Virus record (IMG/VR): IMGVR_UViG_3300031851_000010
Strand: one strand, 5' to 3'
DNA from: an uncultured virus (IMG/VR IMGVR_UViG_3300031851_000010)
Lineage: Duplodnaviria; Heunggongvirae; Uroviricota; Caudoviricetes
Length of the DNA: 64,000 nucleotides
The position numbers and the translations under genes are program-made. Below the pieces are notes generated by a model, which saw only the letters and a list, made by a program, of their open reading frames with translations, ran no database searches and was not told the DNA's origin. Every line of letters begins with the position of its first letter. Position 1 is the stretch's first letter. This document shows, piece by piece, positions 14,664 to 64,000 of the stretch.

Positions 14664-15520
14664 TGGAAAACTTAAAAACAATATCTCAAGAGATAAGAGA
14701 TATAATAGATAAAAAACAAAAAGAATTAGAATTATCATTTACTGAAGCCGAACATATATATTTTATGAAGGATAGGGATGGTATAGTAAGAAATAACTTT
14801 CCTTCAGTCTCTAAAATATTAAAACATTTCTATGAACCTTTTCCAGCTGAAGACATTGCTTATAAAAAGGCTAAGGGGGATAGAGTGGAGATGGAACGAT
14901 TATTAGATGAGTGGTCAGCCGCGGGTTCATATGCAACAAATATGGGGTCTCGAGCTCACTTCATACTAGAGAAGAAAACAATTGAACTATATGGTGATTA
15001 TAAAGAGGTACGTAAACCTATATTTGAATGTGATATTGAACAAGAACTAAGAAGTAACTCAATGATAAGTGCGGGTGAAAAATTCTTAAAATTAATGGAC
15101 GAAAGAGGGGCATACCTTTTAGATACTGAGATGGTTTTAGGTCACCCTGAATTAGGGTATACGGGTCAACCTGATAAAGTTTGGTTAATAATGAATAAGG
15201 AGAAAAACGGTTTTGGGTTAGTAATCACAGATTGGAAAACTAACAAAGAAAAGAATTTTAAAAAAACTCATTGGACAAAACCAATGAAATCACCATTTCA
15301 AGATTTACCTGACAACGCTTTAGGTCACTATCAACTACAATTACCATTCTACGGAAGGTTAATTTTAAAAATGTTGGAAGGAACAAAATATGAAAACATT
15401 TCACTTTTAGGGTGTGTTATCGTATTATTAAAAGGTGATAGTGAATTTGAAGAATTTAAAATACCTTCAAAAACAATAAATAAAGTTATGAATTTAAAAT
15501 TATCTGATTATGGTATATAA
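14663..15520 (+). CDS. PD-(D/E)XK exonuclease (RecB/Cas4-like fold)
   Basis: PSVSKIL, GSRAH, GQPD, DWKT and QLPFY motifs. Confidence 0.75.
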   Translation: MENLKTISQEIRDIIDKKQKELELSFTEAEHIYFMKDRDGIVRNNFPSVSKILKHFYEPFPAEDIAYKKAKGDRVEMERLLDEWSAAGSYATNMGSRAHFILEKKTIELYGDYKEVRKPIFECDIEQELRSNSMISAGEKFLKLMDERGAYLLDTEMVLGHPELGYTGQPDKVWLIMNKEKNGFGLVITDWKTNKEKNFKKTHWTKPMKSPFQDLPDNALGHYQLQLPFYGRLILKMLEGTKYENISLLGCVIVLLKGDSEFEEFKIPSKTINKVMNLKLSDYGI

Positions 15521-16121
15521 AGACCTATATCCTGACATGTTCGATGACAGTGACTTTGACTTATGGAAAAGTAGAAACATAAGAAAAGAATTTTTATCAT
15601 ATGAGTGGAATATGATGGTTCAGGAAGTCGCTCCTGATGTGTTTGAGTTTCCATTTTTTAATACGAAATTCTGTGATAATTTAGTGGATATTTTAAAAAC
15701 GATTAATTGGGACCAAGTAAATCGATGGGGTACGCCTGTTTTTTCAACAAACCTTAAAAAGTTTAATTTAGAAAAAATAATGACTCATTTAGTTCACGAT
15801 TACATTTTTAGTATAGTACAAAAAGAGTGGCATTTAGAGGGTAAAAAATGGAAACTATTACAACCCGATAATAATGTCTTGAAGTTACAAGAGGGTCAGG
15901 AAATTAGAATGCACCATGATGATGTACACATTTCAATGTACTGTAAATTAGATGATGAAAGTAAAGGTGGTGATTTAGTTTTTGAGAAATATGGAAAAAC
16001 TATAGTACCAAAACAGGGTTATATTTATATGTATCCTGGACAAATAACGCATAGATACGGTATGAAAAGAGTTGATAAAAATGATAGGTATTTTTTAATG
16101 ACATATTGTACAAGTGATTAG
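15510..16121 (+). CDS. 2OG-Fe(II) dioxygenase, PLOD lysyl-hydroxylase-like (diverged paralogue)
   Basis: APDVFEFPFF..KFCDNLV, HHD, GG, YPGQITH, RY; metal and 2OG ligands intact. Confidence 0.75.
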   Translation: MVYKDLYPDMFDDSDFDLWKSRNIRKEFLSYEWNMMVQEVAPDVFEFPFFNTKFCDNLVDILKTINWDQVNRWGTPVFSTNLKKFNLEKIMTHLVHDYIFSIVQKEWHLEGKKWKLLQPDNNVLKLQEGQEIRMHHDDVHISMYCKLDDESKGGDLVFEKYGKTIVPKQGYIYMYPGQITHRYGMKRVDKNDRYFLMTYCTSD

Positions 16122-17422: not shown

Positions 17423-17761
17423 ATGAGAAAAAAACTACAAAAAATAGCTTGGAAGACAAATCGATGGACAACAAAGATTAGTTTGCTTAATCTCTACTTA
17501 GGTGGTGATAATCATAAATTTGGGTTTCAAATACTTAATATTGATAAAGGGTTTGTATGGTCAGGGTCATTGTTTGAAGTTACATGGTATTTTCCAACAG
17601 TAACACATTCAGGTGAATTAACAGTTGATATTTTATTTTTATTCGAAAAGTGGGATAATTGGTGTATCGATATGACCGACAGAGTTATGTGGGGTTCAGG
17701 ACTTAGTCGATGGGAAAAAATAAATAGATTCATACATTCCAAATTTAAAAGTATAAGATGA
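17423..17761 (+). CDS. Hypothetical protein
   Basis: ORF 17363-17761; ATG 17423 after an A-rich leader is the likelier start; ATGA overlap with cysK. Confidence 0.5.
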   Translation: MRKKLQKIAWKTNRWTTKISLLNLYLGGDNHKFGFQILNIDKGFVWSGSLFEVTWYFPTVTHSGELTVDILFLFEKWDNWCIDMTDRVMWGSGLSRWEKINRFIHSKFKSIR

Positions 17762-18633
17762 AATTATCAGACAATGTAGGTGTTACGCCATTACTTAAGA
17801 TTAGTGATAAAATATATGCTAAGGTTGAGTTATTAAATCCAACGGGTTCTATCAAAGATAGACCTGCATCACACATTATTAATACAGCAGAAAAAAATGG
17901 AACCCTATTACCTGGTGGGACTATATGTGAAGCCACTTCTGGAAATATGGGTGTTAGCTTTGCTTGGTTAGCTGCGGAACGAGGGTATAAGTGTGTTATC
18001 ATTATGCCTAACAACATGTCAATGGAACGTAAGAAAACCCTAAAACTTTATGGTGCAGAACTTATTGAGGTGGATGCTGGTGCGTTTGATGACGCTATTG
18101 CACTTAGAGATGAAATGTGTGAAGTGAATGGTTGGTTTAATTGTGACCAATTTAATAACCCTTTAAATGTTGAATCACATAAAGAGGGAACTGCGGTTGA
18201 AATATTACATCAGTGTAGAAATATTTGTATAGAACCTAGTGCAATAATCAGTGGTACAGGTACAGGTGGTACACTAATGGGTGTCGGTCCAATGTTAAAA
18301 ATGTATTATCTTAATATGGATATAGTTGCTGTGGAACCTGAAGAGTCTCCTGTGATGAGTGGTGGTGAACCAGGTTTACACGGTATACAAGGGATAGGAG
18401 ATGGTTCAAAATTTTTAGTTGATTTGACTGTTGTTGATAAAATCATTACTATTAGTACTGAGGACGCAAAATTAAGGGCACGTAAGTTAGCTAAAGAACA
18501 CGGTATGTTTGTAGGTATTTCAGCGGGTTCCAATATATTAGCCGCAGAAAGATATGTTGAAAAATATAATCCTGATGGTCCTGTAATAACCTTCCTTTGT
18601 GATAGGGGAGATAGATATTTTAGTTGTTTATGA
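17758..18633 (+). CDS. cysK: Cysteine synthase (O-acetylserine sulfhydrylase)
   Basis: NPTGSIKDR PLP lysine, ATSGNMG, GTGTGGT, HGIQGIG, DRGDRY. Confidence 0.92.
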   Translation: MKLSDNVGVTPLLKISDKIYAKVELLNPTGSIKDRPASHIINTAEKNGTLLPGGTICEATSGNMGVSFAWLAAERGYKCVIIMPNNMSMERKKTLKLYGAELIEVDAGAFDDAIALRDEMCEVNGWFNCDQFNNPLNVESHKEGTAVEILHQCRNICIEPSAIISGTGTGGTLMGVGPMLKMYYLNMDIVAVEPEESPVMSGGEPGLHGIQGIGDGSKFLVDLTVVDKIITISTEDAKLRARKLAKEHGMFVGISAGSNILAAERYVEKYNPDGPVITFLCDRGDRYFSCL

Positions 18634-21627: not shown

Positions 21628-24003
21628 ATGGATTTGTTTAATCCGCCAAAAGAATTAAATTACAGTTATATGAGTCATAAACTAGATGTTGATACTTTAG
21701 AAAATCCTTATATTCAAGTTGTTTGGGAAGATACTCCAGATAATTTTACTCAGGAAAGACTAAAGAGAGTTAGGTCTTATTTTGAAAAAAAATATAAATC
21801 TAAGAATGTAAACGTAATAACGAAAGTTAAGACGGAAGATATGGATGTGCAATCCGTAGACGTTTCTATGAATATATTAGATGAAAATTTTCAAAAAGAG
21901 TTAATAAAAAAATATCTAATTGCTAATGGGTATGAAAAAAGTTTAGATGAAGTATTAAACATTGATTTATTAGTGGAGGATAAAATTGCTTCCGAAAAGG
22001 CGGATATAACACCATTTAAAAAGTGGTACATAAAAAATATTGAATTCTCTAACTTTCTATCATTTGGTGACAAACAAGTTTTAGATTTTGAAAAAGTAGA
22101 AGGTATTACTGCGGTAGAATCTAATCCACCTAACTTTGGTGGTAAAACGGTTTTGACTGTGGACCTTTTACTATTTTTATTCTTTAACACGACAACTAAG
22201 ACTAATAAAGCTGAAGAAATTTTTAATCGATTTAGAAATAAAGATAAAGTAGTAGTTAAAGGTGAAATTCAAATTGATGGTGAGGATTACATCATAGTTA
22301 GGGAAGTCAATCGTAAACTAAAAAGAAATAAAACAGATTACACTGTTAGTACTAGTTTAGAATTTTTCAAAAAATTGTCTGACGGTAGTTTACAAAATTT
22401 TACAGGTGAACAAAGAAGGGAAACCGAAGAGTTTATAAAGAAATCTATAGGAACTATGGATGATTTCTTAATGACTATACTAACTACTTCGACTAATTTA
22501 GAGGAATTAATTGATTCTAAACCCACCGCTAGAGGACAAGTTTTATCAAGATTTTTAGGGTTAGATTCTCTTAAGTTAAAAGAAGACGTAGCTAAAGAAA
22601 TTACTTCAAACTATAGTAAGGGAATGATTTCAAATATATATAATATTGAATCATTAAAGGAAGAGAATGAAATTGCGAAAATCGATATTGAACAAGAGAA
22701 TTTAAACATACTGAAATATGTTGATGAACTTAGTGATGTTAATAGTCGTATTGAGAAAGGTCAGGGTTATAGAGACGATTTGATTAGAAAAAAACACATA
22801 GGGTTAGATGATGAGTTACTTAGAATTAACCCTGAATCAATGAAAGATGAGATTAAAGAATATGGGTCAAAAATAGGTGTAGCACTTAAAGAACTTACTT
22901 CAATCAATGTAGTTGAACCTTCAAAATATTACCATGAAGATGAACACGACCAAATAAAAGAAAAGTTATCAACTGAAAAGGTTAATGAGGGTACAATGTC
23001 TTCGAAAAAAGAAGATATCATTGAAGAATTAAAAACGTTTGAAGATGGATTAGAGTGTCAATACTGTGGTATCGTTTTGGCTCAGTCAACTTACACAGAA
23101 AAGAGAAAAAAAGAATTAGAGGATATTAATATAGGTATAAGTCGTTCTACTCTTAAATTAAAGGAGTTGTCACTTCAAGAACAATCTTTCGTAAATCTTA
23201 AAAAAGATTTTGATACCTATGAAAGAAACAAACTTATAAAGGAAAAATTTGAAATTCAACTTGAAACTTTGGAACTTAAAAAAGGTAGTTTGGAAGATAA
23301 ACTTAAAAGATTCAAAGAGGTTCAAATAAAATTAGAGGAAAATAAAAAAATTGATGAGACCATTCTCAAAGCAGATATGAGGTTGGATGTTTTAACAGTT
23401 GAAAGAGACGGTGTTAATACTAAAATAAGTGATTCAAAAAATAATATTAAAAACCGTAATTCTAAGATTGATGAGAATAATAGTTTTATTATTAGAATAA
23501 AAGATGAAGAAAAGAAATTAAGGTTATATAAAATTTACTTAGAATTATTTGGTAAAAAAGGTATAACCAAAATGATTATGAGAAGTATGACACCGGTAAT
23601 TAATTCAGAATTACAAAGGTTATTGATTGATTCTGCAGAGTTTAAATTGGAGGTTAGGATATCTGAAAAAGATGAGGTTGAATTTTGGATGATAGATAAT
23701 AATACTGGTATTGAAAAATTAATGAGTTCAGGTTCAGGATATGAAAGGTCTATAGCTTCATTGGCGTTAAGGGCGGTTTTAAGTAAGGTATGTTCTTTAC
23801 CGAAACCAAACATAGTTGTGTTTGATGAGGTATTTGGTAAAATATCTAATGAGAATTTAGAAATGGTGTCTCAATTCTTCCAAAAGATTAAAGAGTATTT
23901 CGAGAAAATATTTGTGATAACTCATAATCCTTTAGTTAGTCAATGGGCCGATAGTGTGGTAAAAATAAATAAAGATAATAACGTTTCAAAAGTAGAACAA
24001 TGA
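21628..24003 (+). CDS. sbcC: SbcC/Rad50/gp46-like ABC ATPase
   Basis: NFLSFG, NFGGKT Walker A, coiled coil with CQYC hook, VVFDEVFG Walker B, ITHN. Confidence 0.88.
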   Translation: MDLFNPPKELNYSYMSHKLDVDTLENPYIQVVWEDTPDNFTQERLKRVRSYFEKKYKSKNVNVITKVKTEDMDVQSVDVSMNILDENFQKELIKKYLIANGYEKSLDEVLNIDLLVEDKIASEKADITPFKKWYIKNIEFSNFLSFGDKQVLDFEKVEGITAVESNPPNFGGKTVLTVDLLLFLFFNTTTKTNKAEEIFNRFRNKDKVVVKGEIQIDGEDYIIVREVNRKLKRNKTDYTVSTSLEFFKKLSDGSLQNFTGEQRRETEEFIKKSIGTMDDFLMTILTTSTNLEELIDSKPTARGQVLSRFLGLDSLKLKEDVAKEITSNYSKGMISNIYNIESLKEENEIAKIDIEQENLNILKYVDELSDVNSRIEKGQGYRDDLIRKKHIGLDDELLRINPESMKDEIKEYGSKIGVALKELTSINVVEPSKYYHEDEHDQIKEKLSTEKVNEGTMSSKKEDIIEELKTFEDGLECQYCGIVLAQSTYTEKRKKELEDINIGISRSTLKLKELSLQEQSFVNLKKDFDTYERNKLIKEKFEIQLETLELKKGSLEDKLKRFKEVQIKLEENKKIDETILKADMRLDVLTVERDGVNTKISDSKNNIKNRNSKIDENNSFIIRIKDEEKKLRLYKIYLELFGKKGITKMIMRSMTPVINSELQRLLIDSAEFKLEVRISEKDEVEFWMIDNNTGIEKLMSSGSGYERSIASLALRAVLSKVCSLPKPNIVVFDEVFGKISNENLEMVSQFFQKIKEYFEKIFVITHNPLVSQWADSVVKINKDNNVSKVEQ

Positions 24004-24905
24004 TAAAAATAGTAGTTACAGGTGGAATGGGGTTCATAGGGTCACATTTCGTAAACAAATTAAATAGTGAGATAAATGATTGTGAAATAACAGTTATAGA
24101 TAAACTCACATATGCATCTAACCCTAACAATATCAATACTCAGGTTAAATTTATTAAAGAAGATATATGTAATTTGACTGAATTACCTGACTGTGATTAC
24201 GTAGTTCATTTTGCGGCTGAATCACATGTAGATAACTCAATCAAAGATGGTAGACCATTTGTAAGGACTAACGTTGAGGGTACGTTTAATATGGTTGAAT
24301 TAGCACTAAAGGTTAAAGGTCTAAAGAAATTTATACATATTTCTACAGATGAAGTATATGGGGATATGAATGATTATGGTTTAGAGGTGTCCGCTGATGA
24401 AGAATTTTCGTTGGTTGGGTCATCATACTATTCTGCAACTAAAGCCTCCTCAGACTTAATAGTGCAGTCAGCTGGTAGGACATTTGGGTTACCTTACGTG
24501 ATTACTAGAACCTGTAATAATTTTGGGGAAAATCAACACTCCGAAAAGATGGTACCTAAGATAATTAAAATGATTAAAAACGATGAGTCTATTCCAGTCT
24601 ACGGTGATGGTGAACAAATTAGAGAATGGATACATGCCGATGATAATGCGAAATCAATAATTAATATAATGTTATCGGATGAAGTTAATCAAGTTTTTAA
24701 TATTGGTAGTGGTTATCGTATAACTAATAATGAATTAATTAAAATTGTATCTGAGATAGTTGGTAAAGATGTTAAGTTTGAATACGTAAAAGATAGATTA
24801 GGTCATGATAGAAAATATGCGTTAGACATATCTAAATATAATGATAAATTTGGGACTTTGAACTACATTGACCTTAAAGAGTGGTTGACAAAAATTATAG
24901 GGTAA
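24000..24905 (+). CDS. rfbB: dTDP-glucose 4,6-dehydratase
   Basis: TGGMGFIG, DKLTYA, AAESHVD, STDEVYG, YSATK, DRLGHDRKY. Confidence 0.9.
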   Translation: MIKIVVTGGMGFIGSHFVNKLNSEINDCEITVIDKLTYASNPNNINTQVKFIKEDICNLTELPDCDYVVHFAAESHVDNSIKDGRPFVRTNVEGTFNMVELALKVKGLKKFIHISTDEVYGDMNDYGLEVSADEEFSLVGSSYYSATKASSDLIVQSAGRTFGLPYVITRTCNNFGENQHSEKMVPKIIKMIKNDESIPVYGDGEQIREWIHADDNAKSIINIMLSDEVNQVFNIGSGYRITNNELIKIVSEIVGKDVKFEYVKDRLGHDRKYALDISKYNDKFGTLNYIDLKEWLTKIIG

Positions 24906-26398: not shown

Positions 26399-26935
26399 AT
26401 GGTAAAAGAGTTAACATACAAGAAAAGAGGGACAGACGAGTACTATCCACCACTAAAATATTATAAAATGAGAGATGGTACACATATTGCCACCTATCAA
26501 GGATTTAGAGGGGATAACCCTGATTTAGACTTTATTGTAAAATATAGGGAACCTGGAAAACGATTAAGAACCCCAAGTCATACTCATTGGATTGTTGATT
26601 TACTTGTTAAGTGTGAATACAATAAAGGTTTGGTTAGAGGTTTCGTATATAATATGTTAGACAAGTATGACCAAATGGAACCATTTAAGACTACTGATGA
26701 AAGAGATAATTACGAATTAAAAGTTAAAGATGAGTTGGATGAAGTATACAATGAACTAAACGGTCACGGATACTATCAAATGGATACCTTAACAACATTT
26801 ATTGAACTATTTATTAGATGTGAAAAACAAAGTGAAGGTGCGTTTATGTTTAAAGCCTTATTGCAGTTAATCTTAGATTACTGTGATGGAATAAAAGATT
26901 TTTACCAAATAGTTGGTTATTCAAAAAGAGTGTAG
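26399..26935 (+). CDS. Hypothetical protein
   Basis: 178 aa ORF, no family recognised. Confidence 0.65.
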   Translation: MVKELTYKKRGTDEYYPPLKYYKMRDGTHIATYQGFRGDNPDLDFIVKYREPGKRLRTPSHTHWIVDLLVKCEYNKGLVRGFVYNMLDKYDQMEPFKTTDERDNYELKVKDELDEVYNELNGHGYYQMDTLTTFIELFIRCEKQSEGAFMFKALLQLILDYCDGIKDFYQIVGYSKRV

Positions 26936-26936
26936 T

Positions 26937-27794
26937 ATGAACATATTAGTTACAGGGGGTGCAGGTTTTGTAGGTTCTAACCTAATAAAAAGTATAGTTA
27001 ATAAATATCCTAGTTATAAAGTAATCTCTGTTGACAACTATTTTACAGGTAAAAAAGAAAATCATATTGATTCGCCAAATGTGACTTACGTAGACATATC
27101 AGTTAATGATTACATCGATAGTGGTGGGGGTATTATTCCCGATGTCGTATATCACTTTGGTGAATATTCAAGAATAGTTAAATCTTTTGATGATGTTGAT
27201 TACCTTATTGAGACTAATTTATATTCAACATCTAAGTTAATTGAAAAGTGTAAACAATGGGGTAGTAAGTTAATTTATTCGGCATCATCATCAAAGTTTG
27301 GAAATGATGGTGAAGATGAAAACTTATCCCCTTATTCTTGGGTTAAAGCTAAGATGGTTGAATTAATCAAAAATTATGGTAAGTGGTACGATTTAAATTA
27401 TGAAATTGTTTATTTTTATAATGTTTATGGTCCTTGTCAAATAACTGATGGTGATTACGCGACTGTTATAGGTATATTTGAAAGACAATATAATAATGGG
27501 GAAAATTTAACGGTTGTTGAACCAGGTAACCAACAGAGAGATTTTACACATGTTGGTGATATTGTGGACGGGTTAATACTGATAAGTGAACAGAGTAAAA
27601 ACCATGAGTGGCATCTTAGAAGTGGTGTTAATCATACTATAATACAGATAGCCGAGATGTTTGGTGATTGGGAGTTTATACCTGAAAGACGAGGAGAAAG
27701 ATTTACTAGTGAGGAGTTTAAAACTGATACTGAGGAGATTTTAAATTGGAAACCAAAACATTTAATAGAGAATTATATTAATTCAGTAAAATAA
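26937..27794 (+). CDS. NAD-dependent NDP-sugar epimerase/dehydratase
   Basis: TGGAGFVGS, YSWVK (YxxxK), NVYGP, RDFTHV; ATG 26937. Confidence 0.85.
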   Translation: MNILVTGGAGFVGSNLIKSIVNKYPSYKVISVDNYFTGKKENHIDSPNVTYVDISVNDYIDSGGGIIPDVVYHFGEYSRIVKSFDDVDYLIETNLYSTSKLIEKCKQWGSKLIYSASSSKFGNDGEDENLSPYSWVKAKMVELIKNYGKWYDLNYEIVYFYNVYGPCQITDGDYATVIGIFERQYNNGENLTVVEPGNQQRDFTHVGDIVDGLILISEQSKNHEWHLRSGVNHTIIQIAEMFGDWEFIPERRGERFTSEEFKTDTEEILNWKPKHLIENYINSVK

Positions 27795-46883: not shown

Positions 46884-46896
46884 GGTAAAAAAAATT

Positions 46897-47344: not shown

Positions 47345-47348
47345 AAAA

Positions 47349-47812: not shown

Positions 47813-47857
47813 AATGTCTAAACAAGAATAAACGAATAATAATAAATAAAAAAGAAA

Positions 47858-48061
47858 ATGGCAAAACTAAGAAGAAAAGTGATTATCACAACAGTTCGTT
47901 GGGAAGACACAGAAGAATTAACAGAGGACCAAGTTAAGAGATGGAAAAGTGGAGATGATGACCTCCAAGATGAAGTTCATGATGAAGTAGTGGATGATTT
48001 TGATTTGGTAAGAGATAAAGTATTAGAGGACACCGAGTGGCCTGAATTAATAGAAGAATAA
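47858..48061 (+). CDS. Hypothetical acidic protein
   Basis: 67 aa ORF. Confidence 0.6.
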   Translation: MAKLRRKVIITTVRWEDTEELTEDQVKRWKSGDDDLQDEVHDEVVDDFDLVRDKVLEDTEWPELIEE

Positions 48062-48065
48062 AGAT

Positions 48066-48665
48066 ATGGCAAATAATTTAAAAAGTTTTGTTACCATTAA
48101 AGGTAACGATGAGTCAATTAAACTAATTGATTCAATGGTAGATAATGTTAATAATAATGATAGTGACAGTCCTATTACCGCATTCGCAACAGCATTTTAT
48201 AATGATGTTGAATTAACTGAAGACCGTAGTGTCTTAAACACATGGTCTAATGAAAATTTAGGTTCTAAATGGACCACATTGTATGATGTTCAAAACGATG
48301 GGGAGTTTTCTATTGAATCTGCTTGGTATCCACCAAAACAATTTTTCATCCATCTATATAACCTGTGTGTTACATTAGATGAGAATGTAGAAATTGAAGT
48401 GACATACGAAGATGAAACTTACAGTCCGATTGGTGCAATTGTGATTAAAAAAGATAGAGATGGTACACCATGTATTTGGGAAGAAGAAGACAATGATATT
48501 GAAAATCCGCTTGAGGATATGGATTGGGATGATGAAAAGTACGATGATGTATCTCAAGAATTCTATGAGAGTCTATATGAAAATCAACAATCTCTATTGG
48601 GGTTATGTCACGAGTTAGTAATAACTGATGGTGAACCAATTGAAGAATTAACAGAAACAGAATAA
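48066..48665 (+). CDS. YubB/DUF1281 ferredoxin-like domain protein
   Basis: WSNENLGSKW and IESAWYPP resemble W...NWGTKW / F.TAW.PP. Confidence 0.5.
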   Translation: MANNLKSFVTIKGNDESIKLIDSMVDNVNNNDSDSPITAFATAFYNDVELTEDRSVLNTWSNENLGSKWTTLYDVQNDGEFSIESAWYPPKQFFIHLYNLCVTLDENVEIEVTYEDETYSPIGAIVIKKDRDGTPCIWEEEDNDIENPLEDMDWDDEKYDDVSQEFYESLYENQQSLLGLCHELVITDGEPIEELTETE

Positions 48666-48666
48666 T

Positions 48667-49803: not shown

Positions 49804-50171
49804 TGGAAAATAATAACCAAAATAATAAAGAAGAGTATCTTTTACCTAAAGAAGTATTAACTCACGTTAATAATCTAATTGGTAAAGGTGCTCATACTTT
49901 ATCAACAGTTATTGAAACTGAGTTTTACACTCATGAGGCTTTAAACCGAATGTTAGAAAAAAATGAGATTATTTGGTCACACAAATTATTTAATGGTGGT
50001 CAAGTAATATTAAAGGAAGGACTTATAAGGTTTTCGGAAACTTTTAATTACTTATATTTCATTAAAAGGAAGGACGAAAATACTTATAAGTTCTATACGA
50101 TTTGTAAAGAAGAATCATCAGACGGTATGATTTTCTTTTTAAGAAGTTATAAAAATTTAAAAACAATATAA
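49803..50171 (+). CDS. Hypothetical protein
   Basis: 122 aa ORF. Confidence 0.6.
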   Translation: MENNNQNNKEEYLLPKEVLTHVNNLIGKGAHTLSTVIETEFYTHEALNRMLEKNEIIWSHKLFNGGQVILKEGLIRFSETFNYLYFIKRKDENTYKFYTICKEESSDGMIFFLRSYKNLKTI

Positions 50172-50172
50172 G

Positions 50173-50493
50173 ATGAGAATATTAAACTCGGAAGAATTAC
50201 AGGAAAAAATTAATAGTGGTGAAAAATTTATAGTAGATATGTATGCTGATTGGTGTGGACCATGTAGAATGTTATCAAGAATAATTGAAAGTGTAGATAA
50301 GAAAATGACAAGTGAAGGTCATCAAGTTAATCTATATAAATTTAACATTGAGTCTGATAATCAAATGTCTGCAAAATTAGGTGTTCGTTCAATACCTGCA
50401 TTGTTGGCTTTCAACGAAGGTAAAAATGTTGAAACAAAAATAGGTTTAGTTCAAGAGAATCAAATAATTGAAATGGCAAACAATATATTGTAG
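50173..50493 (+). CDS. trxA: Thioredoxin
   Basis: WCGPC, VRSIP. Confidence 0.9.
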   Translation: MRILNSEELQEKINSGEKFIVDMYADWCGPCRMLSRIIESVDKKMTSEGHQVNLYKFNIESDNQMSAKLGVRSIPALLAFNEGKNVETKIGLVQENQIIEMANNIL

Positions 50494-52251
50494 ATGATTA
50501 TATTAGGGTTAAATTTAGGTCATGATGCTTCAGTTTCACTTTTAAAAGATGGTAAAGTTATTTCATCTATATCATGTGAAAGAATTTATAGACTTAAAAA
50601 AACTTCTTACATTGATTGGGTAGCAATAGATTATGTTTTAAGTGATTCTAATATTTCATTTGATGAAGTTGACTATATAAGTGTTGGGGGGTACGATAAA
50701 TGGAACTCAAACGGATTTATAGAAATTTATTTAGATAAAGATGAAGATAGTCCATTTAAAGGTGAACTCCCACCTCTAACCAAACATGGGTATGATATAT
50801 TTAATGATAATTGGTTAGTGACACCAACTACAGATAGGGAGTCATTCCCTTTCATAAATATTAATGTGGTTTTAGAGGGTCACTATGTAAAAAAAGGTTA
50901 CTTAGTAAATCATCAAACTGCACATGCTGCATCATCTTTTTACACATCACCATTTAAAAAATCTGTCATAATGACATTAGACGCTTCGGGTGAATATCCT
51001 GAAAAAAGTGGGTCTTACCATTACGGTAGTAATGATAGATTAGAAATTTTAGGGGCACCTAATACTTTAGTTGGTGTTTTTTATGACAAAATGACTGATT
51101 GGTTATCGATAGGTCCTGGATTAACTAAAGCTGGAACGTTGATGGGATTATCATCATTTGGTAAACCCAATGAAATAGCTATTAATCAATGGAAGGATTT
51201 TATAATTAATAATAACGGTAAATTAAGTTCAGGTGATTTAGAGTTTTATTATATAATGGGTTCTAAATTATCGGGATTACCCCCACATACCTATAGGGGT
51301 TGGATAGAAAAAGATAATGTATTATACAAAGAAAAACCTAAGTTTAGTGGTAATAGAACAATACTAACTAATTCAGAAGTTGATACGGTAAAGGGTATGG
51401 ACTTAGCATCTTCAGTACAATATATTTTTGAAAAAATAGTTCTGATGTTTGTTGATGAATTATACGAATTAACAAAAGGTTATAATGGTGGTAATTTATG
51501 TTTGGCGGGTGGTTCATTTTTAAACTGTAATGTTAATTATAAAATACTTAAAGAAAGTAAATTTAAAAACATTTACATATATCCCGCTTCAGGTGATGAT
51601 GGGTTATCTGTTGGTTCTACACTTTATTCTTATCATCATATTTTAGGTAATGATAATAAAGAGTATAGTAATTCAGAAATTGTTTATACGGGTAAAAAAT
51701 ATACTAATGAAACTATTGGTGAGAAATATGATGTGAAGGTAATCTCTAAAATGATTAGTGAATCTAAAATTATTGCGTGGTTTCAAGGAGGTTCAGAATT
51801 TGGACCAAGAGCGTTAGGTAATCGTTCATTTATAGCTAATCCTGTTGACCCTAATATGAAAGATATCTTAAACGCTAGAATTAAATTTAGAGAATGGTTT
51901 AGACCATTTGCACCATCGGTTACTGAAGAAAACTGTCAGGAGTATTTTGATATTGATGTTCCATCACCTTTTATGTTATATACATGTCCTGTTAAAAAAC
52001 CTGACTTAGTACCATCCATTACTCATGTTGACGGTACTGCTAGAGTTCAAACAGTTAATCAAAAAGATAATCCAACTTATTATGAGTTGATAAGAGAAGT
52101 TGAAAAACATACCAATATTCCTATGGTACTTAACACTTCTTTAAATATAAACGGTCAACCAATAGTTGAAACAATAGAGGACGCTATTGATTTATTTAAT
52201 AATAGTGATGTTGACGCAATAGTTATTAATAATAGAATGATATTAAAATGA
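50494..52251 (+). CDS. Carbamoyltransferase (NodU/CmcH/TobZ family)
   Basis: GHDAS, HQTAHAASSFY, LAGGSFLN, DDG, EFGPRALGNRS, REWFRPFAP, HVDGTARVQ, LNTSLN. Confidence 0.9.
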   Translation: MIILGLNLGHDASVSLLKDGKVISSISCERIYRLKKTSYIDWVAIDYVLSDSNISFDEVDYISVGGYDKWNSNGFIEIYLDKDEDSPFKGELPPLTKHGYDIFNDNWLVTPTTDRESFPFININVVLEGHYVKKGYLVNHQTAHAASSFYTSPFKKSVIMTLDASGEYPEKSGSYHYGSNDRLEILGAPNTLVGVFYDKMTDWLSIGPGLTKAGTLMGLSSFGKPNEIAINQWKDFIINNNGKLSSGDLEFYYIMGSKLSGLPPHTYRGWIEKDNVLYKEKPKFSGNRTILTNSEVDTVKGMDLASSVQYIFEKIVLMFVDELYELTKGYNGGNLCLAGGSFLNCNVNYKILKESKFKNIYIYPASGDDGLSVGSTLYSYHHILGNDNKEYSNSEIVYTGKKYTNETIGEKYDVKVISKMISESKIIAWFQGGSEFGPRALGNRSFIANPVDPNMKDILNARIKFREWFRPFAPSVTEENCQEYFDIDVPSPFMLYTCPVKKPDLVPSITHVDGTARVQTVNQKDNPTYYELIREVEKHTNIPMVLNTSLNINGQPIVETIEDAIDLFNNSDVDAIVINNRMILK

Positions 52252-52532
52252 AAAAAGTTATAGTTTACACCATGAAAGGTTGTCGTCACTGTGATGATAT
52301 GAAAAAAATGTTAAAGGACTCTAAAATTGAGTTTACACCAAGAGATATAGATGTCTTTAAAAATGAATACGACTTATTTGTTCAGGCTACGGATAGTGAG
52401 TTTATTCCTGCGTTTATGTTATTGACTGTTGAAAAAGGTGACAAAACATCTAACATAAAATTACTGGTACCTGATGATGACTTTGAAGATTTAGACGAAG
52501 CTTTGGTTAAGGTGAAACGATATTTAAAATAA
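52248..52532 (+). CDS. Glutaredoxin-like protein
   Basis: VIVYTMKGCRHC. Confidence 0.75.
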   Translation: MKKVIVYTMKGCRHCDDMKKMLKDSKIEFTPRDIDVFKNEYDLFVQATDSEFIPAFMLLTVEKGDKTSNIKLLVPDDDFEDLDEALVKVKRYLK

Positions 52533-53390
52533 TATCATTTCACCTACTTTATCTTTTACTTTCCATATATTAAAATGACTTATGATTTCTTCTGAGAAAT
52601 CATACTCATTCAAATCCCACCTCTTAATTATTTCATCAGGTTTAAATGTAAATAAATCTAAAATTAAAGATTCTAACCACTCATTACTTGTCATTAAACT
52701 GTCTGAGGTAACTTTAAGTGATATATTCTCCCAATTAATTGTGTCAAACTTAGCGTCTGTAAAAAATTCAACGGTTAAGTCACGACATAATCCTCTCTCA
52801 AATATATTATAAACAATGTAGTTAAAGTACGACTCAAAAAGTTTAGATGTTTTTAAGTTTTTACCGTAATGTTGTGATGATTTAAAAGTTTCAACAGAAG
52901 AATTATTTTTTAAAATTTTATAATCCTCAAAATTATTTAACACATCACTTATGATATCTTCATTAAAATCATTTGTAGTAAATACAATGTTTAAATCAGT
53001 ACAAGCGGTAAACCTGTAGTGTTTATTATTTAACGTATCTAAATAGGTTTGTTTTTTTATTGAATCGGATAACTCATCTTTAGTATATGTTTTTTTAAAA
53101 TAAATCGATTCTTCCTCAACAGGTGTGTCATATTCGATAAGGTCAACAACATTTAAATTTATATCACTACTAAAGAGTGTTTTATAATATGATATAAATA
53201 ATTTAGATAAGTTAATTGGTGTTTTATGTGTGGTATTTCCTCTCACCACTATAAAGTTACTGTTGTTTATTACTTGTATGTTTGTTTTATGATTTTTAGT
53301 TTCTTTTTCTATCTCAAGAATTACCTTATTAACTAATAGATTAGTTAAGTCTTCACCTCTTGAATAAGTTTGTACTATGTAGTTCGGCAT
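52524..53390 (-). CDS. Hypothetical protein, possible highly diverged MetK-fold protein
   Basis: IVVRGNTT, YGKNLK...YIVYNIFERGLC and ILDLFTFKPDEIIKRWDL echo MetK segments; catalytic motifs absent. Confidence 0.45.
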   Translation of the reverse strand: MPNYIVQTYSRGEDLTNLLVNKVILEIEKETKNHKTNIQVINNSNFIVVRGNTTHKTPINLSKLFISYYKTLFSSDINLNVVDLIEYDTPVEEESIYFKKTYTKDELSDSIKKQTYLDTLNNKHYRFTACTDLNIVFTTNDFNEDIISDVLNNFEDYKILKNNSSVETFKSSQHYGKNLKTSKLFESYFNYIVYNIFERGLCRDLTVEFFTDAKFDTINWENISLKVTSDSLMTSNEWLESLILDLFTFKPDEIIKRWDLNEYDFSEEIISHFNIWKVKDKVGEMILF

Positions 53391-53492
53391 ATTAAATGAC
53401 TTTTAAATATTTATTAAATGTATTATATAAAAAAAAACTTGAATGATAAATACAAATCGGTATTTAAAATGAATAATAAACTTTTTTGTGAG

Positions 53493-53500
53493 TATTTATA
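53493..53500 (+). promoter_or_regulatory. Putative late promoter motif TATTTATA
   Basis: Upstream of the collagen gene cluster (ATG 53530). Confidence 0.45.
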
Positions 53501-53529
53501 AAATAAGATAAACCCTTTGAATTGCACCA

Positions 53530-56500
53530 ATGGCTAAAAACATTATAATAGTACCACAACCAACAGGTACGACACTTCCTTATATTATTTTTGAGAACAC
53601 TAATGGTGATACTATTTCATTAAATGTTCACAATGACGGTCGTCTAACTTTTTCAGGTGCAACACATGGTGATGCTTTAGTTGTTATTGATGAAGATAGG
53701 TTAAATGTTAAAGGTTCTATTATCTTAGGTAATGACGTAGCATTTAATAGTGTTGGTTCTATTACGGACACTGGTGGTTGGAAAGGTAGTACTCAAGGAC
53801 TAAAAGGTAATCATGGTGTTGACGGTGATAAAGGTTTAAAAGGTGTACAGGGACCTGTAGGGCCAACAGCTAATAGAGGTACAAGTGTTGATGGACCACA
53901 AGGTGATAAAGGTAGAAAAGGGTTAAAAGGTCTCAAAGGTAGATTTGGTACTATAGGTACTAGTTGGGCGTTCCAAAATGATGGTGATAAAGGTTTAAAA
54001 GGACCACAAGGTCCAACATCCACTGAAGTGGGTCCGAAAGGTGAAAAAGGTAATCGTGGAGTTCAGGGTGAAGAGGGTATTAAAGGTGCTATTGGAGATA
54101 AAGCCAGTCAAGGACCTGTAGGTTTACAAGGTTCAAATTCAGATAAAGGTATTGTTGGTGATAAAGGTAATAAGGGTTTAAAAGGACCACAAGGACCTAA
54201 AGGTGTCAAAGGTATTGAAGGTGAAAAAGGTAAAAAAGGTTCTTTAGGACCACAAGGACCAGTTTCACAATCGGGTTCATCTGCGGATAAAGGACTTAAA
54301 GGACTTAAAGGTCTTCAAGGAACAAAAGGTCCGAAAGGTATTCAAGGTACTCAGGGATTACAAGGACCAATAGCAAGTGTTGGTTCACAAGGACCCATAG
54401 GACCTAAAGGTCCAACAGGAGAAAAAGGTATAAAAGGGCTGATAGGTGTTAAAGGTCTTAAGGGTGTGAAAGGTCTTAAGGGTGTGAAGGGACATAAAGG
54501 ACTTATTGCTGTAAGTGGTGATAATGGTCAACAAGGTCCAACGGGGGCTCAAGGACCAATAGGTTATAAAGGGGACAAGGGACTTAAAGGTCTTCAAGGA
54601 ACAAAAGGTCCGAAAGGTATTAAAGGACCACAAGCCAGTACAACTACACAAGGACCACAAGGACCACAAGGATTACAAGGAATCACTTCAACAGATAAGG
54701 GTATTAAGGGTCAAAAAGGGTTAAAAGGTGTAAAGGGTTTAAAAGGTTTAAAACCTAATAGAGGTACTCAAGGAGGTATCGGTACACAAGCATCACAAGG
54801 ACCTACTGGACCAACAGGACCTAAAGGTGATGATAAAGGTCAGAAAGGTCTAAAAGGTATTAAAGGTCTAAAAGGTAATAGAGGACCACAAGGACCTCAA
54901 GGTGCGATTGGTAATCAAGGTAGTATAGCCTCGACAGGTGACAAAGGTATAAAGGGTGTAGTTGGACCAACACCATTCAAAGGACTTAAAGGTCTTAAGG
55001 GTAATAAAGGTTTAAAAGGACCTAAAAATTCACAAGGTCCACAAGGTCCAACAGGTAATCAGGCGTCTATAGGTGATAAAGGTAATCGAGGTGCTACTTC
55101 AACCGATAAGGGTCTTAAGGGACCTAAAGGTTTAAAGGGTATTGAAGGACCTAAAGGACCTATTGGGTTACAAGGTCCACAATCAAGTACAGGAACTGTA
55201 GGGGAACAGGGACCACAGGGTGACCAAGGACCACAAGGTCCAACTTCAACTGATAAAGGTATAAAAGGACAAAAAGGTTTAAAGGGTTTAACTGGTGGAC
55301 GTGGACCACAAGGAAGTGATGGTGTAAGAGGAGGTAAAGGACCGCAAGGGCCAACAGGTAACAGAGGTAATATTGGTGTATCATCCGACAAAGGTAATAG
55401 AGGTCCACAGTCTGAGGAAAAAGGACTTAAGGGTCCTCAAGGCGATAGAGGTTCACAATCTACTGATAAGGGTCAAAAAGGTCCACAAGGAAGTAGAGGG
55501 AGTCAAGCCGCACAAGGACCAACAGGACCGGCAAGTACCGATAGAGGTCCGGTTGGTAATAGAGGACAACAAGGAAAACAATCTACTGATAAAGGTCAAA
55601 AAGGTCCACAGGGACCACAGGGGGACCAAGCCGCTGCAGGACCAACGGGTCCACAAGGTCCAACCAATGACACTAAAGGTCATAAAGGGTTAAAGGGTTT
55701 AAAAGGAGTTAAAGGTAATAGAGGTAGTCAAGGTCCAAGAGGACCACAAGGAGCAACATCAACCGTAAAGGGGTATAAAGGTATAACCAGTACTACTAAA
55801 GGTATTAAAGGACAGAAAGGTTATAAAGGACCTAAAGGGCCAAGAGGTTCTGTTGGTAATAGAGGGGCACAAGGTGCGACATCAATAGTAAAAGGGGCGA
55901 AAGGACCAAATAATTCTGAAAAAGGGCTAAAAGGACTAAAAGGTTTAAAAGGGCCAAAGGGTAATAGAGGTAACCAAGGACCACAAGGTGTTAGAGGAGC
56001 CAATTCAACGGTTAAAGGGTTTAAAGGGATAGATAATACAACTAAAGGTCCAAAAGGTTTAAAAGGAGTTAAAGGTAATCGAGGAAATCAGGGGTCGCAA
56101 GGACCGCAAGGACCAAGAGGTTCAGCTTCAACTACACAAGGACCAAAAGGTCCAACTAATAATACTAAAGGTCAAAAAGGTGCAGTTGGTGATTCAGGAA
56201 TAAAAGGTGATAAAGGTATACGAGGACCGCAAGGACCAAGAGGAAATGATTCAACAGTAAAAGGATTAAAAGGACAGCCAAGTACTGAAAAAGGTTTAAA
56301 GGGACTTAAAGGGCCAAAAGGGCCGAAGGGTAATAGAGGTAATCAAGGACCTCAAGGGTCAAGAGGAAATGATTCAACAGTAAAAGGACCAATAGGACCG
56401 TCAAGTTCAGAAAGGGGTCTACAGGGTGTTAAAGGATTAAAAGGGCGAAAAGGGCCAAAGGGACGTAAAGGTATTAAGGGACCACAAGGTTCTCAATCTA

Positions 56501-60500: not shown

Positions 60501-62821
60501 GTCCAGATGGTAGTAGAGGTACTACTTCAACAGTTAAAGGTCTTAAGGGTCAAAAAGGTCTCAAAGGATTAAGAGCAACTGATGGAGTAAAAGGTAGTAA
60601 AGGATTAATAGGTATTAAGGGACCAAGAGGACCACAGGGTGGAAGAGGAACAACAACAGGTACTGGTGGAGAACAAGGACCACAAGGTCCAACAGGTCCG
60701 GCAGCATTTAAAGGACTAAAAGGAATAAAAGGTTATAAAGGACCTAAAGGACCTAAAGGGCCGAAAGGAACACAAAGTACATCTCAAGGACCTACAGGAC
60801 CTGGAGGAGATAATGGACCAACAGCCTATAAAGGACTTAAAGGTCAAAAAGGTATTAAAGGGGCTTATGGACCAAAAGGTCCAATAGGTTCAGCGACAGG
60901 AGATGGTGGACCTCAAGGTCCAACAGGGGATAATGGACCGACAGCATTCAAAGGGTTAAAAGGGTTAAAAGGACATAAAGGGTATAAAGGACCTAAGGGA
61001 CCACAAGGACCATCAACTGCCGATGGAGGACCACAAGGTCCAACAGGTCCGGCAGCATTTAAAGGTATTAAAGGTAAAAAAGGGACTAAAGGACCTAAAG
61101 GATATAAGGGACCTTTAGGACCACAAGGAGCGACAACAGGTGTTGCTGGTGATAAAGGACCACGAGGTCCTCAAGGACAGACAGGACCGACAGCATTCAA
61201 AGGATTAAAAGGTACAAAAGGTTTAATAGGACCTAAAGGACCGACAGGAAATCAAGGAACACAAAGTGGTCCAACAGGTCCAACAGGTGCAGGTGGACCC
61301 GCAGCATTCAAAGGGTTAAAAGGGTTAAAAGGACATAAAGGGTATAAAGGACCTTTAGGACCACAAGGAACTGGTAGTTCAGTTAAAGGTTATAAAGGAG
61401 AAAGAGGGCCAAATGGACCGACCGCTCAAAATGGTGATACAGGTCCAACAGGACTAAAAGGACCAAAAGGTCCACAAGGACCGACAGGTCCTCAAAGTAC
61501 TTCAAAAGGACCAAAAGGTGCTGTAGGTATTGGAGGTCCAGCCGCTTTCAAAGGACTAAAAGGTATTACAGGTGAGAAAGGTTTAAAGGGTCAGTTAGGA
61601 CCTACAGGGCCAGCAAATAGTGATAAAGGTACTCGTGGTCCACAAGGAACAACTAATACAACTAAAGGACCAAAAGGACCAAAAGGTCCACAAGGTGGTA
61701 GAGGTCCACAAGGTGGTAGAGGACTAATAGGTACCCAAAGCACATCTCAAGGACCGACAGGACCAATAGGACCATTAGGACCAAAAGGTTTAAAAGGACA
61801 TAAAGGAATTAAAGGTTACAAGGGCCCAAGAGGACCTCAAGGGTCGAAAGGGTCACAATCATCTAAAACAGGACCAAGAGGACCACAAGGTCCGAGAGGT
61901 AATGCTTCTACAGATAAGGGTCAAACAGGTATCGCTGGAAATCCCGGACCACAAGGACCAACAGGACCAAAAGGTTATAAAGGTTATAAAGGACCTAAAG
62001 GGTATAAAGGTCGACAAGGTGGTAGTGGTCCACAAGGTCTTCAAGGTCCACAAGGACCAAGAGGCCCACAAGGGTCAGATGGACCAGCAGCGTTATCTGG
62101 ACCAACAGGACCAAAAGGTTTAAAAGGTAATAAAGGTATAAAAGGACCCACAGGTGGTGCGTTTTGTTTCGCTCATGACATTGCGGTAAGAGCAGGTGAA
62201 GATTGTGCGTATTGTAATGGTAGAAGTAGCCCATGTGGAGATAAGGTAAATTTGACTGTATATAAAGGTGATATACAACCATTAGCTCAGGGTGATATCC
62301 TCTATACTGACCCAGATTGTAAAGATTGTAGAGAATTTGAGGGATTACCATGTATGAGAAATCTATCTACAGATTTTATAACTATATGGGACGCGGTCAA
62401 CTTAGGTGGAGTTTTATTTTCATGGGTAATTACACCACCACCTAAATCAGTAGTAAATGCTTGTGAAATATATGCTTGTGCCGATTGTAGGGCTTCTGAT
62501 AGTAGACTTAAACATGGTACTAAAACATTAAGTGACTCTTTGAATAAGTTACTAAAAATTAATGTTACGGAATATGATTGGAATGAAAATTATACAGGAT
62601 ATGACTTCTTAAAGGAAAGACAAAAATTACATTCAATTGGTATGATAGCACAAGAAATAAACTTATTATATCCTGAAGTAGTTTATAGAAGGGATGATGG
62701 TTATTTAGCTATTAAGTATTATAAATTAAATGCATTAATTATTGAAGCGATTAAAAGTCAACAAGTATTTATTGAAGACATAGAGGAACAAATAAACTGG
62801 TTAAGAACACAAATAGATTAA
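57500..62821 (+). CDS. Collagen-like fibre protein with internal vWA-like domain, Cys-rich tip and S74 chaperone
   Basis: Gly-X-Y tracts flanking a 361-aa globular insert; SDSRLK...GMIAQEI...YYKLN. Confidence 0.9.
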
Positions 62822-64000
62822 TGGCTAATATTATAATATATCCTACGGGAAGTACATTAAACACCAATCCACATATAATTTTTAGTGGTACAGGTGTTGA
62901 TTATACTATTGAAATAGATACTACAGGTGATTTAGTATTTAAGTCTTCTACAAATATTTTTAAAATATCTGATAGTGCTACTCCATTATCATTACCAGGT
63001 GAGGTTAATGTTATTAATAGTGAACTTTATGTTGGTAGTATGATGGTAGTTGACTCTGGAGGTCATTGGGTTGGGCAGACAGAAGGTCTTAAAGGTCAAA
63101 AAGGTCTCAAAGGACTACAAGGTGTTGACGGTGATAAAGGTTTAAAAGGTAATAAAGGTATTCAGGGAATCGTTGGACCTACAGGTGATAAAGGTGACTT
63201 CGGTATCAAAGGTGGTATTGGTTCTGACGGAGAAAAAGGAATCAAAGGTGAGCTTTCAGTCAAAGGGGATAAAGGTAACCGAGGACCACAAGGTGAGAAA
63301 GGTATTGTTGGACCTAAAGGGTTAAAAGGGTTAAAGCCGTCAGACTCAACAAAAGGTCTTAAAGGACCAACAGGTCTAAAAGGGTTAACATCTTCAGATA
63401 AAGGAACTAAAGGTCCGACAGGTCTTAAAGGTGTTAAAGGAAATAAGGGTCTAAAACCTGAACAAGGACCAAAAGGTAGTATAGGTGGTGATTCACCTCA
63501 AGGGCCAACAGGTTTAAAAGGGCCGACATCATCAGATAAAGGTCAAAAAGGACCAAAAGGTATAAAAGGTGTAAAGGGACAAAAAGGTATTCTTGGAAAT
63601 CAAGGTCCACAAGGTGATAAAGGTGTTAGGTCGACAGATGGGGATAATGGACCACAAGGACCAACAGGACCTACCGCTGATAAAGGACCTATTGGTAACA
63701 AAGGTATAAAAGGTCTTACAGGACCACAAGGTCCGCAAGGTCCTGATGGTATTGTAGGTGTACAAGGACCTGATGGTGATTTAGGACCAAGAGGTCCACA
63801 ATCTACAGACAAAGGTGATAAAGGTATCAAGGGTATTAAAGGTATCAAGGGTATTAAAGGACCTAAACAAGGTAGAGGTGTAATAGGTACACAAGGTGAA
63901 AAAGGATTTATCGGACCACAAGGTCCAACAGGTCCAGGTGGACCAGCAGCCGTTAAAGGACCAATAGGTCCACAAGGACCGACAGGACCAAAAGGATTTG
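62821..64000 (+). CDS. Third collagen-like fibre protein, 3'-truncated (not in ORF track)
   Basis: ATG in TAATG overlap; [23 protein letters not shown]...[19 protein letters not shown]; open to window end. Confidence 0.88.
   Translation, partial: MANIIIYPTGSTLNTNPHIIFSGTGVDYTIEIDTTGDLVFKSSTNIFKISDSATPLSLPGEVNVINSELYVGSMMVVDSGGHWVGQTEGLKGQKGLKGLQGVDGDKGLKGNKGIQGIVGPTGDKGDFGIKGGIGSDGEKGIKGELSVKGDKGNRGPQGEKGIVGPKGLKGLKPSDSTKGLKGPTGLKGLTSSDKGTKGPTGLKGVKGNKGLKPEQGPKGSIGGDSPQGPTGLKGPTSSDKGQKGPKGIKGVKGQKGILGNQGPQGDKGVRSTDGDNGPQGPTGPTADKGPIGNKGIKGLTGPQGPQGPDGIVGVQGPDGDLGPRGPQSTDKGDKGIKGIKGIKGIKGPKQGRGVIGTQGEKGFIGPQGPTGPGGPAAVKGPIGPQGPTGPKGF

Follow-up and report, generated by a model that had tools for sequence, protein, structure and literature searches.

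Hydroxylation of collagen lysine and its glycosylation with glucosyl-galactose are treated as hallmarks of the animal extracellular matrix, and mimivirus as a curiosity. In animals, the PLOD1-3 proteins (LH3, PDB 6fxk) join a glycosyltransferase (GT) domain, an accessory (AC) domain and a lysyl hydroxylase (LH) domain in one chain, and COLGALT1 (PDB 8zgc and 9evj) is of family GT25. Mimivirus L230 is an 895-amino-acid (aa) protein that combines a glycosyltransferase with an LH domain at its C terminus, and R699 is a separate GT-AC protein (L230/R699, PDB 6ax6 and 9dyt). Mimivirus also encodes its own Lys-containing collagen-like proteins, and the enzymes are active in bacterial cytoplasm (PMC9546862, PMC12279948). 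Here, a 64,000-nucleotide stretch of DNA from an uncultured virus (IMG/VR record IMGVR_UViG_3300031851_000010; the whole stretch is called the window) was found to encode two LH-domain proteins (P0001 and P0002), a PLOD-type GT with an accessory domain (P0003) and three collagen-like fibres (P0004, P0005 and P0006). We give a probability of about 0.64 to the reading that the fibres of this phage are hydroxylated and glycosylated on Lys by a phage-encoded pathway, whose substrate, sequence of steps, sugars and purpose we infer. The reading builds on what was observed: the genes are identified and intact, the fibres concentrate Lys in the Y position, the source is a phage, and the enzymes are co-inherited and fused across distant phages.

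As judged from these genes, the system would work like mimivirus L230/R699/R655 and the animal PLOD/COLGALT pathway. It shares with the animal enzymes the LH, GT_PLOD plus AC and GT25 families, the catalytic motifs and the X-Lys-Gly target motif, at an identity of about 31%, and with mimivirus the combination of a viral collagen lysine hydroxylase and a separate GT-AC protein of the two-domain build seen in P0003. Whereas animal PLOD proteins act as single GT-AC-LH chains in the endoplasmic reticulum on secreted collagens rich in hydroxyproline, the phage has separate genes, the setting of a bacterial cytoplasm and almost no Pro in the Y position of its collagens. Unlike mimivirus, the source is a tailed phage with a bacterial host, its LH domain is a free 211-aa protein accompanied by another LH paralogue whose metal site is altered, and its putative substrates end in a phage-type Peptidase_S74 (S74) chaperone domain. 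Small phages fuse GT25, GT and LH without an AC domain, an order that to our knowledge is not known in animals.

The fibres also resemble the BclA-type exosporium fibres of Bacillus, which are glycosylated prokaryotic collagen-like filaments. The sugars of BclA sit on Thr rather than on hydroxylysine, and the BclA system, unlike that of the phage, involves neither LH nor a PLOD-type GT. A 2022 review (PMC8968730) covers such modification of prokaryotic collagens, by BclA-type glycosylation and by a bacterial prolyl 4-hydroxylase (P4H), and presents phage collagens as short or tiny and prokaryotic collagens as mostly unmodified. Iyer et al. (2010; PMC2938197) predicted that 2-oxoglutarate (2OG) dioxygenases modify co-encoded collagen-like and tail-collar proteins in prokaryotes, in hydroxylation/sulfation operons; in the available portion of that paper, the operons involve other dioxygenase families, with no PLOD-type LH, GT_PLOD or GT25, and do not concern phage fibres. 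A full-text literature search (supplements unopened) found no paper on PLOD-type enzymes in bacteriophages.

A lysyl hydroxylase domain and a divergent paralogue

All six genes named in a preliminary description of the window, made from the letters alone, are present in place as open reading frames (ORFs). P0002 (16265..16900, + strand, 211 aa) is a predicted stand-alone collagen lysyl hydroxylase domain of canonical type, with the HHD...H...R residues intact. Among PDB structures it matches human LH3 (E 2.7e-29) and mimivirus L230 (E 5.6e-23) over its full length, the next family being P4H at E 1.8e-3, and it passes the Pfam cut-offs of both OGFOD2-like and 2OG-FeII_Oxy_3. Its residues H142, D144, H190 and R200 are invariant across 17 aligned rows and align to the HHD...HYH...R of LH3.

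P0001 (15510..16121, + strand, 203 aa) lies upstream of P0002, 144 bases away and 25% identical to it, and the tandem pair is conserved in six related records (G001, G003, G004, G008, G009 and G011). It is weakly matched to LH3 by sequence (E 3.6e-7), with Pfam scores below the cut-offs. Its AlphaFold model, with a predicted local distance difference test (pLDDT) score of 88, has as top fold matches the LH domains of LH3 and L230 (TM 0.74-0.80, E 4e-13); no other family scores better than E 1e-7. By sequence for P0002 and by fold for P0001, the two oxygenases are thus nearest to collagen LH domains, as had been proposed. P0001 has the LH fold and keeps the HHD residues and the 2OG-binding Arg, and in its 'ITHRYG' motif a Tyr (Tyr183) replaces the distal iron-binding His. 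Because the canonical distal His is a Tyr, P0001 is classed on its residues as a conserved LH-like protein with an altered metal site and not as a proven hydroxylase. The distal His is kept in all 15 of the other LH rows compared; His181, two residues ahead of Tyr183, is invariant in the 11 rows of the P0001 family. The metal and 2OG residues of a lysyl hydroxylase are thus intact in P0002, and P0001 departs from them at the distal His and may be non-catalytic or an altered partner subunit.

A modelled complex of P0001 and P0002 gave an ipSAE of 0.74, against 0.00 for the best of three controls, a pass that may reflect likeness only, because LH homodimers are solved structures. The 0.74 mark is reached by 116 of 157 solved complexes and by 2 of 215 mismatched pairs. 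Contact agreement between runs was at least 85% and partner pLDDT at least 86, with the PGQITH stretch of both chains at the modelled interface. We accordingly put forward a P0001-P0002 heterodimer as a hypothesis from modelling. The same phage has a third 2OG oxygenase of 209 aa (L013:1321-1950, corresponding to 134316-134945 of the overlapping record G002), which adjoins an RmlD-like gene and matches weakly to L230 (E 6e-5) and P4H (E 4e-4).

PLOD-type and GT25 glycosyltransferases

P0003 (43723..45153, + strand, 476 aa, GTG start) is a stand-alone PLOD-type GT with an accessory domain, in the architecture of R699. It scores 247.3 bits against a cut-off of 27 for Pfam GT_PLOD (E 1.7e-73), and aligns with residues 14-492 of LH3, covering GT and AC (E 6.2e-58), and with R699 from 11 to 456 (E 5.8e-43). 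Since P0003 spans GT plus AC as R699 does, the PLOD architecture is split in two, GT-AC and LH. The preliminary description had all three domains in separate genes; the separation of LH from GT stands, and GT and AC share one gene. Residues W51, D92-S-Y-D95, D170-D171 and, in the active site, H228/N230 are invariant in 17 homologues, and the family consists of open frames at 33-99% identity. D92-S-Y-D95 and W51 align to the DSYD and EEW motifs of LH3; roles for the DSYD in Mn binding and for the Trp in UDP binding are described in PMC9546862. R699, of the same two-domain build, glucosylates galactosyl-hydroxylysine (PMC9546862, PMC12279948), and P0003 is accordingly a predicted galactosylhydroxylysine glucosyltransferase. 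Some homologues, including P0056, P0096 and about 40 others of 685-699 aa, carry an S-adenosylmethionine (SAM) methyltransferase domain inserted in the GT domain. In G010 (L118; 22% complete), the sole record of this variant looked at, the collagens are Lys-poor (Lys-in-Y 0.01-0.11) and there is no clear LH; the variant may modify something else.

Because R699-type enzymes add glucose to galactosyl-hydroxylysine, a hydroxylysine galactosyltransferase would also be needed. Among ORFs of at least 80 aa between 7234 and 53390 of the window, no GT25 match was found at E<=0.001. The same phage has a GT25 ORF of 249 aa outside the window (G002:76327-77076, domain G002:76534-77064), scoring 47.5 bits against a cut-off of 24. 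Human COLGALT1 chains are its sole PDB relatives at E<1e-6 (E 1.6e-8), and with the GT25 portion of a GT25+GT_PLOD fusion it shares 27% identity. It is a candidate for the first sugar transferase on hydroxylysine, with the acceptor assigned by analogy, given that GT25 also includes lipopolysaccharide enzymes. Separate GT25 ORFs are also present in G008 and G011 (99% complete), and none was found in G009 (60% complete).

Collagen-like fibres as predicted substrates

The three fibre genes follow one another on the + strand. P0004 (53530..57507, 1325 aa) consists of a short N-terminal domain, about 1130 aa of interrupted G-X-Y repeats (Pfam Collagen E 1.5e-97) and a C-terminal S74 domain at residues 1220-1278 (E 4.4e-14); the repeats reach right to this chaperone. 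P0005 (57500..62821, 1773 aa) has two collagen stretches around a globular insert (Collagen E 7.4e-105), a Cys-rich region and a C-terminal S74 domain (E 1.9e-9). The insert of about 375 aa (residues ~245-620) and the Cys-rich region (~1560-1660) belong to no Pfam family and may be receptor-binding parts. P0006 (62821..64000) runs off the window, which holds its first 393 aa (Collagen E 2.6e-35); the full-length gene in G002 (L025:3553-7521(-)) encodes 1323 aa, with Collagen at E 6.1e-96 and S74 at E 6.3e-17. The three fibre proteins are predicted triple-helix collagens equipped with a trimerisation device. At the usual rise per residue of a collagen helix, mature fibre 1 would be mostly a triple-helical rod on the order of 300 nm.

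The concentration of Lys in the Y position noted earlier is borne out by triplet counts. P0004 has Lys in Y of 110 of its 300 triplets and in X of 2, P0005 in Y of 137 and X of 4 (317 triplets), and the partial P0006 in Y of 40 and X of none (88 triplets). Pooled over 705 triplets, in runs of up to 22, Lys occurs 287 times in Y and 6 times in X, occupying 37-45% of the Y positions of each fibre, a pattern well removed from chance and from that of ordinary viral collagens. The fibres are thus rich in X-Lys-Gly, the lysyl hydroxylase motif. Pro is the reverse, with 100, 115 and 29 occurrences in X and 0, 1 and 0 in Y, respectively. Prolyl hydroxylation of the fibres was considered and set aside: with Pro in Y of 1/705 triplets, there is no X-Pro-Gly substrate for a prolyl 4-hydroxylase.

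Co-occurrence and gene fusions across phages

LH and GT genes and collagens with Lys in Y travel together across distant phages, a co-occurrence that the preliminary description had proposed as a check. Every one of the five close relatives with the GT also carries several giant collagen ORFs (1247-1773 aa). A further 21 GT_PLOD-bearing viral records were named, and 18 of these were searched. LH is present in 13 of the 18 records with a GT_PLOD-like match, and collagen (E<=1e-9) in 12 of those 13; the five GT records without LH have no collagen, and their GT matches are weak (25-32% identity). The association of LH with collagen among the 18 gives a Fisher p of 7e-4. In the collagens of LH-bearing records, Lys fills 18-74% of Y positions and about none of the X positions. 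As a control, 80 collagen-like loci were drawn arbitrarily from IMG/VR; 56 contigs among them had at least 20 triplets. Median Lys-in-Y was 0.01 in these 56 contigs versus 0.395 in 10 LH-bearing records (Mann-Whitney p 8.7e-7). The LH profile matched 2 of the 40 control records searched, in both covering only the C-terminal half, the double-stranded beta-helix (DSBH).

The three activities are also tied together by gene fusions. Homologues of P0003 include GT25+GT_PLOD-AC fusions of 718-723 aa (49-58% identity), and the nearest representatives of P0002 (44-54% identity) have the architectures GT4/GT1+GT25+LH, GT25+LH, GT_PLOD+LH and GT25+GT_PLOD+AC+LH. The complete 61-kb phage G016 has terminal repeats and encodes a terminase, a portal, a head protein, an internal virion protein and a tail fibre. 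Its virion module includes a cassette (L264:7869-14589) of a collagen gene (1256 aa, 69 Lys in Y of 353 triplets), then a 188-aa 2OG oxygenase, then, 1.1 kb downstream of the collagen gene, a 614-aa GT25+GT_PLOD+LH protein with no accessory domain. The parts of this protein match COLGALT1 (E 2e-17), the GT domain of LH3 (E 7e-41) and the LH domain of L230 (E 1.8e-9). Tried as a counterpart of P0001, the 188-aa oxygenase aligns poorly and belongs to a different 2OG type. Roseobacter phage CRP-6 has 26 Lys in Y among the 99 triplets of gp60, which is annotated as a putative tail fibre; gp59 comes next and then gp58, a GT-LH fusion. In Synechococcus phage S-PRM1 a 1824-aa protein with 23 Lys in Y of 59 triplets lies upstream of the fusion enzyme. 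Both fusion enzymes are annotated as hypothetical proteins.

The source is a contractile-tailed jumbo phage

The window has a G+C content of about 30% and carries nearly all of its genes on the + strand. IMG/VR record G002 (198,834 bases; CheckV completeness 66%) is a reverse-oriented match to window positions 31507-64000 at 99.88% identity, and extends 166 kb past the window. PHROG matches in G002 include a tail sheath, baseplate hub, HK97-type major head protein, prohead protease, portal, large terminase (gp17-like) and endolysins, and the window itself has a sigma-70 factor, DnaG-type primase, SbcCD, dCMP deaminase, Dam methylase, peptidoglycan amidase and DnaJ. The head protein and terminase of G002 share 26-45% identity with their counterparts in Flavobacterium phage immuto, Microcystis phage Mel-JY01 and huge uncultured phages. 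Contigs of 291-300 kb carry near-identical copies of P0001. From these phage markers, the size of the P0001 contigs and the 66% completeness of G002, the source is a contractile-tailed marine jumbo bacteriophage of roughly 300 kb and not a giant virus of eukaryotes; the bacteriophage origin assumed earlier is confirmed by the head, portal, terminase and tail genes.

The phage is common in the sea: window positions 43700-53600 turn up in 20 marine or seawater studies, in six cases in RNA libraries, and the GT and all fibre genes are covered without indels by contigs from four marine metatranscriptome runs. The RNA-library contigs attest presence only and are no proof of transcription, strand or level, and the many 'joints' inside the collagen genes in these contigs are repeat artefacts.

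A proposed pathway and its alternatives

The proposed pathway would begin late in infection, when the unfolded chains of at least three giant G-X-Y fibres would be hydroxylated at Lys in the Y position of X-Lys-Gly. The hydroxylase would be a dimeric Fe(II)/2-oxoglutarate enzyme formed by P0002, possibly paired with P0001. A GT25 of the COLGALT1 family, encoded elsewhere in the genome, would then put the first sugar on the hydroxyl, and P0003, as a GT-AC protein like R699 and LH3, would add the second. Finally, the S74 chaperone would trimerise the fibre and cleave itself off, leaving very long, sugar-coated triple-helical fibres without hydroxyproline. The purpose may be helix stability and hydration, protection, or adhesion. 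The bacterial cytoplasm can support this chemistry, since mimivirus L230 and R699 are active when produced in E. coli (PMC9546862).

Several points weigh against fibre modification by these enzymes. Hydroxylysine or a glycan on any phage fibre is something we infer from sequence analysis alone. The genes are scattered and form no operon: the LH pair lies in a neighbourhood of replication genes, beside a primase and an exonuclease, with 27 kb separating it from the GT and 37 kb from the fibres, and the GT25 lies about 90 kb past the window end. Two short-chain dehydrogenases/reductases (SDRs; 24000-24905 and 26913-27794), tried as a phage GalE for UDP-galactose, have their top scores with families of the dTDP-glucose 4,6-dehydratase and heptose epimerase types, the one at 24000-24905 looking like a dTDP-glucose 4,6-dehydratase. 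Every one of these scores is below the curated cut-offs, GalE scores lower than the top families, no GalE was found, and the two SDRs are not counted as part of the system. In P0001, the distal-His column is Tyr183 in 11/11 family rows (41-100% identity), within an invariant PGQITHRYG motif. In G001, which matches the window at 99.6% identity over 37.7 kb with both LH genes 100% intact, about nine 1-bp indels disrupt the counterpart of the GT-AC gene 43723-45153 (G001:C1:41022-42455) and scatter it across three frames. Mismatches are locally in excess there, which simple decay does not account for; the gene is either dispensable and broken or affected by a local assembly fault. Record G015 (96% complete) has LH and no collagen at E<=1e-9. 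Lys in Y alone stabilises triple helices, and Lys-in-Y reached 0.18 or more in 7 of the 56 control contigs, so that a Lys-rich Y position is not exclusive to LH phages; an LH profile search in five of those seven Lys-rich records (5-85% complete) gave no match.

The same enzymes and fibres might be joined by other chemistry: hydroxylation only, serving hydration or cross-links, or a single or different sugar, either glucose directly, as with mimivirus L230, or a deoxy or modified sugar from the phage's sugar-nucleotide genes. P0003 would then be no galactosyl-hydroxylysine glucosyltransferase. The broken GT beside intact LH genes in G001 speaks for this, as do enzymes that glucosyl-galactose would not need (the 4,6-dehydratase-like SDRs, an aminotransferase, an acetyltransferase, a UDP-sugar dehydrogenase, a GT11-like gene and a NodU-like carbamoyltransferase at 50494-52251), and L230 itself makes glucosyl-hydroxylysine (PMC9546862). 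P0003 nevertheless retains the DxxD, Trp and poly-Asp residues of LH3 and R699, and GT25 and GT_PLOD, the animal pair that adds galactose and then glucose, recur as fusions both with one another and with LH, which leaves such variants unlikely, though worth keeping in view. It is decidedly improbable that the oxygenases and GT act instead on host proteins, other virion proteins or small molecules, with the collagen link incidental, in the manner of the auxiliary 2OG oxygenases of marine phages. The distance of the LH genes from the fibres, in surroundings of replication and metabolic genes, the abundance of 2OG-Fe(II) oxygenases in cyanophages, the 72 phage records that match P0002 and the lack of a strong collagen in G015 would suit such a target. 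Collagen is nonetheless found in 12/13 LH-bearing and 0/5 LH-less GT records, LH in just 2/40 arbitrary collagen records (DSBH half only), the fused enzyme of G016, CRP-6 and S-PRM1 adjoins collagen genes within the virion module, and the best PDB relatives are all collagen enzymes.

That the enzymes are inactive relics of horizontal transfer from a eukaryote or giant virus is very hard to credit. The frameshifted GT of G001 and the missing metal ligand of P0001 would be expected of relics, but both families are open and conserved (41-100% identity for P0001, 33-99% for P0003) with invariant catalytic residues, copies without indels occur in four RNA libraries, and in the GT tree the window clade (14 rows, support 95) stands apart from the animal clade (99). 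The idea that the window belongs to a giant virus or polinton-like virus of a protist draws on its AT-rich DNA, on PLOD-type GTs present in metagenome-assembled genomes of giant viruses, and on collagen and S74 fibres like those of polinton-like viruses (PMC12220804). It is next to untenable against the tail sheath, baseplate hub, HK97-type head, portal, gp17-like terminase, sigma-70, DnaG primase, SbcCD and peptidoglycan amidases, and phages of Flavobacterium and Microcystis are the closest cultured relatives in head protein and terminase.

Phylogeny and implications

A quick maximum-likelihood tree of 53 GT domains, unrooted, contains clades for the window family (14 rows; Shimodaira-Hasegawa-like approximate likelihood ratio test, SH-aLRT, 95), animal PLODs (99) and the small-phage fusion enzymes (99), with an open backbone; the phage clade is also separate from the giant-virus clades. 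Because the window clade is separate from the animal clade, the tree indicates that the phage GT is not a recent capture from an animal, and with the tree unrooted and its backbone open, no donor can be named among phages, giant viruses and animals. A broader proposal would make hydroxylysine-linked collagen glycosylation a widespread and old trait of phages, spanning marine jumbo myoviruses, podovirus-like phages of about 60 kb, cyanophages and roseophages. It would be run by a modular toolkit of their own that includes all-in-one GT25+GT+LH enzymes and, in jumbo phages, a hydroxylase that pairs one active with one metal-site-altered subunit, and the animal PLOD/COLGALT pathway would share roots with this gene pool. 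We regard this proposal as possible but doubtful.

A complete, conserved phage pathway beside collagens of 1300-1800 residues, if true, would change the textbook view and bear on the origin of the animal pathway. It would also represent a new post-translational decoration of phage fibres, which could affect how the phage recognises its host, withstands seawater and sticks to particles. Recombinant collagen that is both hydroxylated and glycosylated is described as still not possible in E. coli in PMC9546862; small, soluble enzymes native to a bacterial cytoplasm, including the 614-aa three-in-one protein, could yield it. The cultured carriers CRP-6, S-PRM1 and S-CAM9 make the claim directly testable.

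Neighbouring genes and host

The NodU/NolO-like carbamoyltransferase (50494-52251) lies between the GT gene and the fibres; such enzymes carbamoylate sugars. A GT11-like gene, of the fucosyltransferase family (L024:17023-17982 (-)), is located about 8 kb beyond the fibre genes, and aminotransferase, acetyltransferase, sugar dehydrogenase and epimerase genes cluster in the same phage. Elsewhere, the window encodes a GlnII-type glutamine synthetase (48667-49803), a cysteine synthase (17758-18633) and a full DnaJ (39436-40386). A 550-aa protein (9141-10793, + strand) contains an SprB repeat, a part of Bacteroidota gliding adhesins, at E 1.9e-6, just below the cut-off. Together with the Flavobacterium phages among the nearest cultured relatives, it gives a weak hint of a Bacteroidota host.

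An open frame of at least 2374 aa (3-7127, + strand) runs off the window start. Its protein has Cys-rich globular parts set between hundreds of Thr-Pro repeats, in a mucin-like arrangement without a Pfam family, and could be another glycosylated surface protein. Within this frame, at positions 2001-4000, there is a strong skew of C over G.

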